Shown in pieces: positions 3,990 to 29,588 of a DNA stretch of 33,085 nt (the stretch's first letter is position 1; each line of letters opens with the position of its first letter). The stretch lies in assembly GCA_041658145.1 (NCBI GenBank), contig JBBAAT010000001.1, positions 1 through 33,085 of the forward strand, given 5' to 3'. This DNA comes from Bacteroidales bacterium. Its GTDB lineage: Bacteria > Bacteroidota > Bacteroidia > Bacteroidales > CG2-30-32-10. The position numbers and the translations under genes are program-made. The notes under the pieces were generated by a model that was given only the letters and a program-made list of their open reading frames with translations, was not told where the DNA came from and did not search any database.

Positions 3990-4127
3990 TAGATTTTAAT
4001 TTTGACACTTCCTGACAATCATTCGTGACTAACAAAAAAATAAAATAGTGGAGTTCAGTGACCACTGAAAAAAACGGGGCGAAACCGAAAAGCCAAACGA
4101 GTAGGGGAAAAATAAAATTTCAGAATC

Positions 4128-7384: not shown

Positions 7385-7514
7385 TAGTGTTAAGTTAATA
7401 AACAGATGACGCAAAGATTGCTTCGTCGTACCTCCTCGCAATGACGTCATTGCGAAGCCGACGCAGGAGGCTGAAGCAATCTTAATGTGAGAATTTAGGT
7501 TTAACATAACACTA
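7385..7514. repeat. palindromic REP/MITE-like element, family 'cgcaatgacg-tcattgcgaag', copy 1
   Basis: Outer arms tagtgttaagttaa / ttaacataacacta. Long inner palindrome aagattgcttcgtcgtacctcctcgcaatgacg|tcattgcgaagccgacgcaggaggctgaagcaatctt centred at 7445/7446. Confidence 0.85.
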
Positions 7515-22327: not shown

Positions 22328-22350
22328 TTTAATTAGTGTCTGTATATAAA

Positions 22351-22441
22351 GTCGTCATTGCGAATCCCGCATGTGCGGGATGAAGCAATCTAATCATTGT
22401 TTGTCAATAGATTGCTTCGTCGTACCTCCTCGCAATGACGT
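22351..22441. repeat. palindromic REP/MITE-like element, family 'cgcaatgacg-tcattgcgaag', half-swapped variant (copy 2)
   Basis: It contains the same two half-sites as 7385-7514 but in the opposite order: gtcattgcgaa...gaagcaatct, then agattgcttcgtcgtacctcctcgcaatgacg. It has a different inner hairpin, tcccgcatgtgcggga. Confidence 0.8.
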
Positions 22442-22468
22442 ACCGTTTGCGTATCATCAGTTAACAAG

Positions 22469-26310: not shown

Positions 26311-26437
26311 TGTTAAGTTAAGAGTGATATGTCGAATAGATTGCTTCGTCGTTCCTCTTCGCAATGACGTCATTGCGAAGCCGACGAAGGAGGGTGAAGC
26401 AATCTTACTGCGTAGAAATAAGTTTAACATAACACTA
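26309..26437. repeat. palindromic REP/MITE-like element, family 'cgcaatgacg-tcattgcgaag', copy 3
   Basis: Outer arms tgttaagttaa / ttaacataacact. The inner palindrome agattgcttcgtcgttcctcttcgcaatgacg|tcattgcgaagccgacgaaggagggtgaagcaatct is collinear with copy 1. The element abuts the HADH stop codon. Confidence 0.85.
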
Positions 26438-26491
26438 ATTTAATTATACCAATTAATGCATTTAAACATTTAACCTTTAATAAATAAAAAT

Positions 26492-27736
26492 ATGAAAAAT
26501 TTAAGAAGAAAAGTATATATGGTAGCCGGATATAATACCATTTCAATGGGAACCGGCAGAAAAGAATTCAGCCCTAAGAAAGAACGCCCGGGACTGGAAG
26601 AATATGTTAAAGAAGCAGGACAGGGTGTATTGAAACAAATAGGAGGAGCAGCAAATGTTGACGAATGTGTCATCGGTAATTTTATTGCTTCGCTTTTTAA
26701 CAGGCAGGGGAACATGGCAGGGTTTTTCCCGTTTATTGATAAAGGACTCACTTTTAAACCCTGCACCCGAGTTGAAGGAGCATGTGGTACCGGAGCCCTG
26801 GCTCTTGCTACCGGTATTAAATCCATTCTGGCTGAGACCGCTGAAGTGGTTCTTGTGCTTGGCGTGGAAGTTCAGAATACCGTTAAAGCTATTTATGGCG
26901 CTGATATCCTTGCAACAGCAGCCTGGGCAAAAGAAAGGAAAGACGGTCATGCTTATTTTTTCCCCGGGAAATTCAGCGACCGTGCAGGCGCTTACTATGA
27001 AAAATTCGGAAAAGAAAAAACACGCAAGGCAATGGCAAAATGGTATGTGAATGCCATTGAAAATGCACGCCTCTGTCCTACAGCACAGGAGTTTCACAAT
27101 ACCACCAAAGATTTGATGGCACAGGGAATGTCGGAACCCAGTCCAAAAGCTTTTGTTGATAATCTTAACTTTTTTGATTGTTCCAAAGTTTCTGACGGAG
27201 CCTCGGGTATTGCTATAGTTTCGGAAGAAGGACTGAAACGTTGCGGTATTTCAAAGAAAGATGCAGTTGAAATTGTTGGATTCGGACAATCGGAATATGA
27301 CATCACCAAACCTCCTGCAGATCTTACAAAGCTTGAAACTACTGCAAACGCTGCAAAGAAAGCTATGGAAATGGCAGGAATTACTAAGGATCAACTTGCA
27401 ACGGTTGAAACTCATGATTGTTTTACTATTGCAGGCATTATGGCTGTTGAAGCAATTGGTTTAGCCGAATACGGCAAAGGAACAGATTATGTTCTCGAAG
27501 GAAAAACTGCACGCGGAGGCGAAGTTCAATTTAATACTACAGGCGGATTAGTTGGATGGGGACATCCTACAGGAGCTACAGGTGTTCATCAGGCTGCAAC
27601 AATTTTAGAACAGTTGACTGGAAAAGCCTGTGATGCACAGATAACCCTAAAACCAGAACGTCCTTATGGATTATCCATCAATATGGGTGGCGATGATAAA
27701 ACGCTGGTTTCAATAGTTTACAAGAAAGCGGAATAA
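26492..27736 (+). CDS. thiolase-like protein (SCPx / type-II thiolase-like acetyl-CoA C-acyltransferase)
   Basis: 414-aa ORF with active-site Cys context VEGACGTGALAL, C-terminal ETHDCF and GGLVGWGHPTGATG, typical of SCP-x-type thiolases. Confidence 0.85.
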   Translation: MKNLRRKVYMVAGYNTISMGTGRKEFSPKKERPGLEEYVKEAGQGVLKQIGGAANVDECVIGNFIASLFNRQGNMAGFFPFIDKGLTFKPCTRVEGACGTGALALATGIKSILAETAEVVLVLGVEVQNTVKAIYGADILATAAWAKERKDGHAYFFPGKFSDRAGAYYEKFGKEKTRKAMAKWYVNAIENARLCPTAQEFHNTTKDLMAQGMSEPSPKAFVDNLNFFDCSKVSDGASGIAIVSEEGLKRCGISKKDAVEIVGFGQSEYDITKPPADLTKLETTANAAKKAMEMAGITKDQLATVETHDCFTIAGIMAVEAIGLAEYGKGTDYVLEGKTARGGEVQFNTTGGLVGWGHPTGATGVHQAATILEQLTGKACDAQITLKPERPYGLSINMGGDDKTLVSIVYKKAE

Positions 27737-27757
27737 TTAATTTCATCATTAAATCAG

Positions 27758-27791
27758 GGTCACACTTAGTTCGTCGAAGTGTGACCTTTTT
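27758..27791 (+). terminator. rho-independent terminator after the thiolase gene
   Basis: Stem ggtcacac (27758-27765) / gtgtgacc (27779-27786) with a 13-nt loop, followed by ttttt (27787-27791). The GTG start proposed by the ORF track (27781) lies inside this stem. Confidence 0.6.
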
Positions 27792-27816
27792 AGTTTTTAA
27801 TATCCCAATATTATCC

Positions 27817-28398
27817 ATGGAACAAGACCGATATTATCATATTTTTAACAGAGGGAATAACAACGATATACTATTTTATGAAGATGAAAATTATGATTAT
27901 TTCATAAAGAAATATCGTTTTTATCTTGATAAATATGTTGATACACTTTGTTTTTGTTTAATGAAAACCCATTTTCATTTTTTAATAAAAATAAAAGATA
28001 CTGAACCAAATATTTCCGAAGTAAACAAAAAATCTATTTTAACACCGTTGGAAAAAGCATTTAAGGATTTTTTTATCTCTTACGCTAAAAGCATAAATAA
28101 AAAGTATCACCGGACTGGAAGTTTGTTTCAGTATAAATTCAAAAGAAAAGAAATTAGGGATGAATTCTATCTAAAAAATATTATTCGATATATCCACTTA
28201 AATCCTGTGGAATCAGGTTATTGCTTCACTCCAGACAAATACTATCAAAGTTCTTATAATACGATTTTGAAAGGAGATAACTCTTGGATTCGCACTGATC
28301 TTGTAATTGATTTTTTCGGAAATCTTGACGACTTCAAGAATTTCCATCAACAATTGGACGAAAACCCAAACCTTCGCCCTGACTTCAAAAGTTTTTAA
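27817..28398 (+). CDS. REP-associated tyrosine transposase (RAYT; IS200/IS605-like Y1 HUH transposase)
   Basis: N-terminal YHIFNRGNN, HUH motif in THFHFLIK and catalytic-Tyr motif RYIHLNPV. The start is moved to the ATG at 27817 (MEQDRYYHIF). It is very AT-rich (12/60 G+C in line 27901-27960, against 32/60 in thiolase line 27541-27600). Confidence 0.85.
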   Translation: MEQDRYYHIFNRGNNNDILFYEDENYDYFIKKYRFYLDKYVDTLCFCLMKTHFHFLIKIKDTEPNISEVNKKSILTPLEKAFKDFFISYAKSINKKYHRTGSLFQYKFKRKEIRDEFYLKNIIRYIHLNPVESGYCFTPDKYYQSSYNTILKGDNSWIRTDLVIDFFGNLDDFKNFHQQLDENPNLRPDFKSF

Positions 28399-28411
28399 AA
28401 CTTTTGAAGTC
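28381..28411. repeat. perfect 14-bp inverted repeat centred on the RAYT stop codon
   Basis: gacttcaaaagttt (28381-28394) / aaacttttgaagtc (28398-28411), separated by 3 nt. The TAA stop is at 28396-28398. No T-run follows. Confidence 0.85.
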
Positions 28412-28442
28412 TTGCTAGCGCAGGCGAATAAAAACTAAGCAA

Positions 28443-29393
28443 ATGAACCGAATCACTCAACTCTTCAACATAAAATACCCCATCATCCAGGCAGGAATGA
28501 TATGGTGCAGCGGATGGAAACTTGCCTCAGCAGTTAGCAATGCCGGCGGACTTGGATTGATTGGTGCCGGATCGATGACACCTGAAATTCTGCGGGAACA
28601 TATAAGAAAATGTAAAGCCGCTACGAATAAAGCTTTCGGAGTAAATATTCCGCTCCTCTTTCCGTACGCTGATGAGTTCATTAAAATTGTTATTGAAGAA
28701 AAAATAAAAGTTGTTTTTACTTCTGCCGGTAATCCTGCAAAGTGGACATCCTTTCTGAAAGACAATGGTATCAAGGTCGTTCACGTTGTTGCCAATGTAA
28801 AATTTGCGAAGAAATGTAAAGAAGCCGGTGTTGATGCCATCGTAGCTGAGGGCTTTGAAGCCGGCGGCCATAACGGAAAAGAAGAAACCACTACAATGGT
28901 TCTGATTCCCATGGTTAGAGAAGTTGTTTCTATTCCATTGATCGCTGCAGGAGGCATAGGTACAGGCAGGGGCATGCTTGCTGCTATGGCACTTGGAGCC
29001 GAAGGAGTTCAAATAGGAAGCCGCTTTGTTGCATCAGAGGAATCTTCTGCTCATCCTAACTTCAAGCAAAAAGTGATCGAAACAAAAGACGGCGACACCA
29101 TGCTCACTTTTAAACGCTTTGTCCCGGTGAGGCTGATCAAAAATAAATTTTTCAATGATGTTGAAAATCTTGAAATGCAGGGCGCTTCTGTTGAACAGTT
29201 GTCTGAACTTCTCGGAAAAGGAAGAGCTTGCAAAGGCATGTTTGAAGGCGATGTGGATGAAGGAGAGCTTGAGATAGGCCAGATATCAGGATTGATAAAA
29301 GAAATAAAACCTGCCGGAAAAATTGTGGAAGAGATCATGAATGAATTTCAGAAAGCAAAAGAAGAGTTATTAACTGATGTTACGCATATTTAA
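28443..29393 (+). CDS. nitronate monooxygenase family FMN oxidoreductase (FabK-like enoyl-ACP reductase II candidate)
   Basis: 316-aa ORF with motifs PIIQAGMIWCSGWKLASAVSNAGGLGLIG, AEGFEAGGH and AAGGIGTGRG, typical of the NMO/FabK family. Confidence 0.85.
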   Translation: MNRITQLFNIKYPIIQAGMIWCSGWKLASAVSNAGGLGLIGAGSMTPEILREHIRKCKAATNKAFGVNIPLLFPYADEFIKIVIEEKIKVVFTSAGNPAKWTSFLKDNGIKVVHVVANVKFAKKCKEAGVDAIVAEGFEAGGHNGKEETTTMVLIPMVREVVSIPLIAAGGIGTGRGMLAAMALGAEGVQIGSRFVASEESSAHPNFKQKVIETKDGDTMLTFKRFVPVRLIKNKFFNDVENLEMQGASVEQLSELLGKGRACKGMFEGDVDEGELEIGQISGLIKEIKPAGKIVEEIMNEFQKAKEELLTDVTHI

Positions 29394-29407
29394 TATTTAT
29401 TTGTTAG

Positions 29408-29522
29408 TGTCACTCAGAGCCGGACATAGCATGGATTTGCGGGTTAGCGTCCGTGTCGAAGAGTGACTATGTGTTGGTCGGGCTTCGACACGTCCCGAAA
29501 TGGGGACGGCTCTGCCTGACCT
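29408..29522. repeat. nested palindromic element between convergent genes
   Basis: Outer stem cagagccg (29415-29422) / cggctctg (29507-29514). Inner perfect 10-bp stem cgtgtcgaag (29452-29461) / cttcgacacg (29483-29492). A further small hairpin is gtcccgaaatggggac. Confidence 0.8.
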
Positions 29523-29588
29523 CTAAATTTAGTAATCATTTGTTTTTATTTGCGTAACATCAGTTATTAAAAATAAATTTCTGAAATA

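Follow-up and report, generated by a model that had tools for sequence, protein, structure and literature searches.

The closest described systems are the TnpA_REP protein of Escherichia coli (YafM), a REP-associated tyrosine transposase (RAYT), and the REPtron, in which the same repetitive extragenic palindrome (REP) lies on both sides of the gene (structure 4ER8; Messing 2012 and Ton-Hoang 2012, as described in PMC6006769). The REPtrons described include examples in genomes that carry no dispersed REP family (Di Nocera 2013, PMC3733652). In the classification of Quentin 2018 (PMC6006769), Y---NP is the signature of class 2 (TnpA_REP) and Y---Q that of class 1, and subclasses 2.4 and 2.6 are listed as rich in Bacteroidetes. 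The present analysis concerns a RAYT-like gene in a stretch of 33,085 nt from a Bacteroidales bacterium, hereafter the window, which is the entire contig C1 (JBBAAT010000001.1) of a 2.87-Mb metagenome-assembled genome (MAG; GCA_041658145.1, 420 contigs, 91% complete). The runs that contain this contig are landfill and groundwater metagenomes. The locus is quite probably an old REPtron: a class-2 RAYT gene acquired between a thiolase and an NMO gene and vertically inherited there, with a 33-nt palindrome as its partner, of which the 5' copy has been lost here. A preliminary description of the window had singled out the gene because RAYT/REP systems were held to be mainly proteobacterial. This argument does not carry, Bacteroidetes systems being already catalogued (subclasses 2.4 and 2.6, PMC6006769); the window gene is an ordinary member, in an eroded state.

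The RAYT-like gene and its protein

The open reading frame (ORF) extends from 27817 to 28398 on the forward strand, with an ATG start and a TAA stop, and encodes 193 amino acids. The hallmarks named in the preliminary description are all found: YHIFNRGN corresponds to residues 7-14, the HUH motif H52-F53-H54 to nucleotides 27970-27978, and YIHLNPV, which starts at Y125, to nucleotides 28189-28209 (28189-28206 for YIHLNP). Y125 is presumed to be the catalytic tyrosine.

The nature of the protein was assessed with NCBIfam, with profiles against the PDB and with a predicted fold. REP_Tyr_transpos is its sole NCBIfam match (E 1.9e-14), at 53.8 bits. A PDB search with the single sequence returned noise only. 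A profile of 30 homologs gave exactly one PDB match, E. coli TnpA_REP (4ER8, E 1e-6), in an alignment with a constant ten-residue offset, where Y125 is paired with the catalytic Y115 and Q105 with Q95. The AlphaFold2 model, built on the alignment, has a predicted local distance difference test value of 91.3, and its top PDB match in Foldseek is again 4ER8 (E 4e-7, TM 0.67). All its top fold matches are Y1 transposases, among which the TnpA of IS608, ISDra2 and IS200 rank below 4ER8 (E about 3e-4 or weaker). The HuH motif and the single tyrosine on the expected fold are those of the HUH/Y1 superfamily (TnpA_Y1), and within it the Y---NP motif and the greater proximity to TnpA_REP than to IS200/IS605 TnpA are features of class 2. 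The same holds for the low number and the divergence of copies: the genome contains two class-2 genes, 45% identical, and five other genomes contain one or two close RAYT copies each. Judging from sequence and model, the window ORF encodes a HUH/Y1 protein that belongs to class 2, the RAYT/TnpA_REP kind, and which by homology would have a single-stranded DNA nuclease activity. Its designation as a RAYT and not an IS200 TnpA is upheld by the profile, which matches 4ER8 only, by the fold, which matches 4ER8 best, and by the class-2 tyrosine motif.

Some observations speak against this assignment. The Pfam scan of the protein gave no match, Y1_Tnp included (Y1_Tnp matches 22 of the 30 homologs), and the REP_Tyr_transpos score lies below the curated cut-off of 80 bits. 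Moreover, W94, W99, E100 and H101, the residues of E. coli TnpA_REP that read the GTAG guide (PMC6006769), are replaced by F104, K109, R110 and K111, so that recognition must differ from that in E. coli.

The family is large: 13,636 cluster representatives match with E values up to 1e-3. Its 1,858 close proteins come mostly from MAGs of Bacteroidota, Chloroflexota and Ignavibacteriota, and many are labelled RayT by JGI. Among 269 fetched family proteins, NHFH is found in 79% and YIHxNP in nearly all, while the third motif reads F[QE] and never has a W.

The gene is indeed AT-rich. With a G+C content of 28%, compared with 43% in each of its neighbours, thiolase and NMO, it ranks in the lowest 2.5% of the 1773 ORFs of at least 150 amino acids in the genome. 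At the third codon position its G+C fraction is 0.26, against 0.30 and 0.37 in the neighbours, while it falls to 0.35 against about 0.54 at the first position and to 0.23 against about 0.40 at the second. The low G+C content is thus due to the amino-acid composition, since the deficit lies in codon positions 1 and 2; the protein is rich in K, N, I, F and Y. Values of 27-31% are common to all RAYT orthologs. Recent horizontal transfer was considered as the source of this composition and is ruled out by the third-position value, close to that of the neighbours, and by synteny.

The cognate palindrome and the left hairpin

Two hairpins flank the gene, as the preliminary description had noted. Both exist, but only the right one is a cognate palindrome; the left one belongs to the thiolase gene. 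The right palindrome occupies 28380-28412, with no strand assigned, and its arms (28381-28395 and 28397-28411) are perfect over 15 nt. Its z-score is -6.8, no shuffled sequence folds equally well, and it forms a stable 14-bp hairpin. The left arm encodes the last five residues of the protein (DFKSF), the TAA stop codon lies at the apex, and no T-run follows. The palindrome is present in a single copy in its own genome. A genome-wide search for looser forms returned only the window copy and a weak look-alike at C23:16115-16140, CAGAAGTTTT-AC-AAAACTTCTG, which has 10-bp arms and is devoid of the outer AGAC/GTCT part.

Palindromes of the same family recur beside RAYT orthologs. Their common form, AGAC-N4-AAGTYT-N(1-3)-ARACTT-N4-GTCT, is 33 nt long and accounts for almost all palindromes near the gene. 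A sequence-agnostic scan of 33 family loci, in which near means the gene ±200 bp, identified 51 long palindromes near RAYT (1.63 per kb) against 15 in the remaining 171 kb (0.088 per kb), and 25 of the 33 loci have a palindrome near the gene. Three positions are occupied: one centred about 40 nt ahead of the start codon, one within the gene (+195 to +237 nt) and one immediately after the stop codon. The hosts are Bacteroidota, Chloroflexota and Ignavibacteriota. No conserved tag was found outside the 33 nt, and in particular no external GTAG tag. In an alignment of 55 copies (the window copy and 54 from other loci), pre-selected for at least 12 of 16 pairs, 97% of the cells are paired. Compensatory changes affect 10 of the 16 pairs and 131 cells, a number reached by none of 500 shuffles, and pairing falls to about 52-56% when the partner is slid by one column. 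In more distant Bacteroidales relatives (34-46% identity) the palindromes are arranged and placed alike but differ in their middle part, so that the palindrome variant changes with the protein clade. From its sequence and its distribution, the right palindrome is the cognate REP-like palindrome of the RAYT gene, which the protein would bind as E. coli TnpA_REP binds REPs.

The palindromes inside the genes, which many relatives have, are in frame and correspond to the β3/αC loop, which is modelled with low confidence in the window protein; the peptides that they encode include DYKSLQDFCSL and QTSEVFKTSEV. The window gene contains no internal palindrome. Positions 28012-28030, in this loop region, read ATTTCCGAAGT and resemble the left arm of the Ferruginibacter-type palindrome, CTTCCGAAGT; this segment may be a relic half-site or may be due to chance.

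The number of palindromes per genome varies. The core is found once in the window's own genome, 2-5 times in each of four other genomes, including two complete chromosomes, and 6-23 times, on many contigs, in each of five Ferruginibacter genomes, where a reversed-pattern control gave 0. The Ferruginibacter genome tested for gene copies (G004) carries one close RAYT copy only. In MAGs of Ferruginibacter and Saprospiraceae, clusters that resemble bacterial interspersed mosaic elements lie upstream of the RAYT gene (L018:2459-2961 and L026:2677-2930); they are made up of two regularly spaced palindrome subtypes in alternation. By these sequence counts the palindrome behaves in some lineages like a REP of low to moderate copy number, while other lineages have it only as a solitary flank.

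The left hairpin (27758-27786) has a 10-bp stem, a 9-nt loop and a DNA-fold z-score of -6.2, which no shuffle equals. Five T follow directly, up to 27791, so that the whole forward-strand segment 27758-27791 is terminator-like. It is unique in the genome (up to 2 mismatches) and lies outside the RAYT palindrome family. In G014, which belongs to the same genus as the RAYT-bearing G017, the thiolase gene abuts the NMO gene without RAYT, and an orthologous hairpin with the same loop core and compensatory stem changes lies between them. The left hairpin is part of the thiolase backbone, since it has this ortholog in the absence of a RAYT gene. Other orthologs carry unrelated terminator-type hairpins after the thiolase gene. 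The left hairpin is most likely the thiolase terminator, a reading based on inspection and on the G014 ortholog; a terminator scan did not call it, the loop limit of the scan being 8 nt against the 9 nt of this loop.

History of the thiolase-NMO site

The upstream neighbour in the ORF list is an SCPx-type thiolase gene (26492-27736) and the downstream one an NMO/FabK-like FMN oxidoreductase gene (28443-29393), both on the forward strand. They belong to a conserved order ECH-HADH-thiolase-(RAYT)-NMO. The order thiolase-RAYT-NMO, on the same strand, is found in at least four genera, and the longer order ECH-HADH-thiolase-RAYT-NMO occurs also in L004, L005, L079 and G017. Protein identity to the window RAYT is 92% for the L078 ortholog, 79% for G017/L007, 78% for L079, 71% for L006, 68% for L004 and 60-62% for G013 and G008. 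Against four syntenic orthologs the proportion of synonymous differences (pS) in RAYT is 0.67-0.78, which is saturated. Nonsynonymous divergence (dN) is 0.15-0.29 for RAYT and 0.10-0.19 for the neighbours, and the RAYT ratio to synonymous divergence (dN/dS) is about 0.09-0.11 where computable. The saturated synonymous sites and the low dN/dS show that the RAYT gene has long been present at this locus and is subject to purifying selection. Pairwise identities of RAYT and NMO are correlated (r = 0.66 over 15 non-independent pairs). In the RAYT tree the clades track host taxonomy, while the deep backbone across phyla is not resolved and gives no verdict on cross-phylum transfer. No close RAYT relative was found on 72,556 plasmids or in 50,697 phage records. 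Comparison of the sequences indicates that the gene is not a recent insertion and that it has been inherited vertically for a long time at one fixed spot. Of the AT-rich insertion initially described, the composition stands, while a recent arrival is contradicted by the third-position G+C value, by saturated pS and by synteny in at least four genera.

The state of the locus differs between relatives. Both palindromes are present in G017, G013 and L079; only the 3' copy is present in the window, L004 and L006; G008 has only the 5' copy and a stop codon in the gene; the palindrome is collapsed in G006; G010 has a degenerate solo palindrome and no gene, and G014 a clean empty site. The 5' palindrome is kept in the close orthologs L078, L079 and G017 and absent from the window, where the thiolase terminator is found. 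The same palindrome lies on both sides of the gene, as in a REPtron, in L007, L078, L079, L008 and most family loci, but the window has the 3' copy only. Nor does its own genome contain the dispersed extragenic palindromes of a REP/RAYT system. The loci of one bacterial family thus display successive stages of decay: two hairpins, a single hairpin, a broken gene, a scar with a solo palindrome, and an empty site. At the G010 site (L066:1430-1475) a T-run comes after the degenerate solo palindrome, CAGACCACAAAAGTTT...GGTGGTCTG, which has the look of a REP or deletion scar now used as a terminator. The 71% ortholog (L006:660-762) has three tandem copies of a 23-nt unit that includes the left arm of the 3' palindrome; the final residues of the protein are encoded by the first copy, and the third copy is part of the complete palindrome.

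In the history that we propose, a palindrome-RAYT-palindrome unit would have been gained between the thiolase and NMO genes in an ancestor shared by several genera in this Bacteroidales family, and it would have descended vertically under purifying selection since then. The palindrome would have spread to 6-23 sites in some genomes, while the genome analysed here would have lost the 5' copy and been left with the 3' one. By analogy with E. coli TnpA_REP and IS608, the protein would bind the palindrome as a hairpin on single-stranded DNA and cut near it through a 5'-phosphotyrosine at Y125, with the metal at H52/H54; this nuclease activity may have seeded the dispersed and intragenic copies. 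As its own genome contains one hairpin, the enzyme would have little to mobilise there, and the gene would be kept either for a host-level role or as a slowly eroding passenger.

The preliminary description had called the window saturated with repeats, and it is: more than 10 segments contain 15-mers present 10-93 times in the genome. Inside 27737-28442 no 15-mer occurs more than 3 times. No abundant family flanks either RAYT-like gene: BLAST of the flanks of both genes against the genome detected no repeat family, and the 15-mer census agrees. On these sequence data the abundant repeat families of the window show no link to the RAYT gene and are not its substrates. One of them, an element of about 200 nt downstream of NMO (29367-29569) that resembles a miniature inverted-repeat transposable element (MITE), has terminal inverted repeats ACTGATGTTACGCATAT ... 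and reverse complement. The genome contains 26 exact copies of its core, GTCGAAGAGTGAC, and BLAST recovered 73 pieces of the element. The internal stems differ between copies in a compensatory manner, and several copies hold nested insertions of a small palindrome, CCTGCC...GGCAGG; contig depth in the source runs rises in 40- to 60-fold spikes over the element. A nested palindrome around GATTGCTTCGTCG...CGCAATGACGTCATTGCG, whose 15-mers reach 93 copies, is the genome's most abundant repeat. It is found in the window at 7388-7482, 22329-22453 and 26317-26438, the last copy just upstream of the thiolase gene, and no transposase was linked to it.

Several points weigh against an old, vertically inherited REPtron. 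RAYT-less thiolase-NMO sites exist in two relatives, G014 and G010, and repeated insertion at a preferred site could replace one gain followed by losses. Binding and cleavage of the palindrome by the protein are argued from homology only, the covariation figures come from the pre-selected copies mentioned above, and the symmetry of the palindrome could equally be that of a duplex site for a dimeric protein or of an RNA hairpin. If the palindrome-gene-palindrome unit were still an autonomous insertion sequence (IS)-like element, repeatedly inserting at a preferred site, the empty sites, one of them in the genus of the RAYT-bearing G017, would be accounted for, as would the presence of the same palindrome in three phyla under an unresolved deep backbone. 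We regard this as unlikely. Genomes contain one or two diverged copies and no near-identical duplicates, synonymous sites are saturated between syntenic orthologs, RAYT divergence tracks that of NMO, and plasmids and phages gave no close copies. The degenerate palindrome at the G010 empty site looks like a deletion scar. Furthermore, no contig joining thiolase to NMO without RAYT was found in four public runs, a weak indication as it concerns assembled contigs only.

It is more doubtful still that the right palindrome acts at the RNA level only, whether by terminating transcription, by stabilising the 3' end of the mRNA or as a translational element, with no partnership at the DNA level. Such a role would suit a stable 14-bp hairpin that coincides with the 3' end of the ORF and holds the stop codon in its loop, and the stabilisation of upstream mRNA by REPs is known from E. 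coli (cited in PMC6006769). However, no T-run follows it, relatives hold the same sequence upstream of the gene, in frame inside it and also away from RAYT genes, and it is the sequence and not just the pairing that is conserved over phyla and varies with the protein clade. Mobilisation of an abundant genome repeat by the RAYT, for instance of the MITE-like element, appears highly improbable. The genome is certainly very repeat-rich, and the match of 12 out of 13 positions between the left hairpin (27773-27785) and this element (29455-29467), from which the preliminary description had drawn a hint at the substrate, is real. However, it is at chance level: the 13-mer has 26 exact copies, always within the element, and a single extra one-mismatch site outside the element family, that of the left hairpin, against an estimated chance expectation of 1.5-3.4 genome-wide. 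The left hairpin is most likely the thiolase terminator, and its ortholog in G014, where there is no RAYT, matches at only 10 of 13 positions. The 26 exact core copies adjoin neither RAYT-like gene, and the palindrome that flanks orthologous RAYTs is conserved and quite unlike this element. The old REPtron thus remains the preferred explanation.

Other Y1 genes are present in the genome. The second class-2 RAYT-like gene (C96:69-638, locus L002; 45% identity) has a YIHNNP motif and lacks palindromes. On either side it has a copy of a 62-bp direct repeat (93.5% identity) that is private to this gene, and its flanks are otherwise non-repetitive. Contig C337 (1-173, L003) overlaps the first 126 nt of this gene and continues into a 23-nt sequence also found at the ends of six further contigs; this points to a strain variant in which a repeat or an IS has inserted. 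Three Y1 genes of about 155 amino acids (C18:13106-13438, C84:3690-3980 and C63:6266-6607) carry the subclass-1.2 signature DH.H / WQ / YI.NQ.EHHKK (Quentin 2018); a segment of a 22-copy repeat lies 20-70 nt upstream of the C84 gene. Elsewhere in the window, positions 4043-4111 of the forward strand match the Rfam DUF805 RNA motif at 79 bits, above the gathering score.

Relation to described subclasses and systems

The window protein resembles E. coli TnpA_REP in its HUH and single-tyrosine fold, for which TnpA_REP is the best profile and fold match, and in the Y---NP motif; as in E. coli, the genes of the family are flanked by their own palindromes and present in one or a few copies per genome. 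In contrast, identity over the fold alignment is only about 12% and the GTAG-reading residues are not conserved. The family palindrome is a near-perfect AT-rich 33-mer that bears no external GTAG tag, unlike E. coli REPs, and occurs in 1-23 copies per genome rather than hundreds. With the TnpA of the IS200/IS605 family (IS608, ISDra2), the protein shares the HUH/Y1 fold, and the family the involvement of DNA hairpins, which these transposases recognise at the element ends. IS200/IS605 elements are characterised by Y--NQ, many near-identical copies, distinct left- and right-end hairpins and often tnpB, whereas the window RAYT has neither the Y--NQ motif nor multiple near-identical copies with distinct end hairpins; their TnpA give a weaker fold match (E about 3e-4) and no profile match to the window family.

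Subclass 2.4 corresponds to RAYT Group 4 of Bertels 2017 (PMC5581495), with a mean length of 194 amino acids and the HuH motif NH[IFV]H (PMC6006769). It is found in Bacteroidetes and in scattered phyla, including Caldilineae and Chlorobia, its intragenomic copies are about 40% identical, and its stated unique trait is an in-frame REP inside the gene between HuH and Y (PMC6006769). The present family agrees with it in length, in the HuH motif (NHFH), in taxonomic spread and in the divergence of intragenomic copies; an in-frame REP between HuH and Y is seen in many relatives but not in the window gene. However, the window protein reads THFH / FQ / YIHLNP where the signature of subclass 2.4 has WQ and YIxNNP; the paralog on C96 does carry YIHNNP. 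The REPs of subclass 2.4 are of the 'long' or 'double foot' type (5' GTRG ... CYAC 3'), whereas the palindromes of the family have CTAC ... GTAG inside the stem.

Subclass 2.1, in its second signature, which is probably that of 2.1.2, corresponds to RAYT Group 1 and to the TIRYTs (Di Nocera 2013, PMC3733652), with the signature NH[YF]H / FQ / Y[IV]HLNP (PMC6006769 Table 1). Its members are reported to have a mean length of 238 amino acids, a long C-terminal helix-turn-helix or DnaA_C-like extension and no REP-like sequences near the gene (PMC6006769). The window protein matches this signature, as far as motifs go, with a T for the N before HFH. It differs in that it is 193 amino acids long (about 190-200 in the family) and gives no Pfam helix-turn-helix match, and in that palindromes flank the genes of the family. 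A literature search on the letters of the palindrome returned unrelated primers only.

For the window itself these findings have little weight, as the RAYT gene does not explain its many repeat families. At the family level the gain is modest: a widespread RAYT clade, mostly of uncultured hosts, has a clear and very conserved hairpin partner. Tentatively, and on motifs and lengths, the clade of about 190 amino acids with NHFH / FQ / YIHxNP may be a short-form branch of subclass 2.1.2 (Group 1) with a cognate 33-nt REP that inserts in frame. If so, the 33-nt palindrome, with ends and apex conserved over three phyla, would be the REP of a group published as having no partner repeats. In-frame REP insertion would no longer be unique to subclass 2.4, the catalogue of REP-associated RAYT groups would have to be revised, and an unusually conserved protein-hairpin pair would be available for biochemistry. 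Signature and behaviour point to two different published subclasses, which suggests that the classification needs a reference-based revision.

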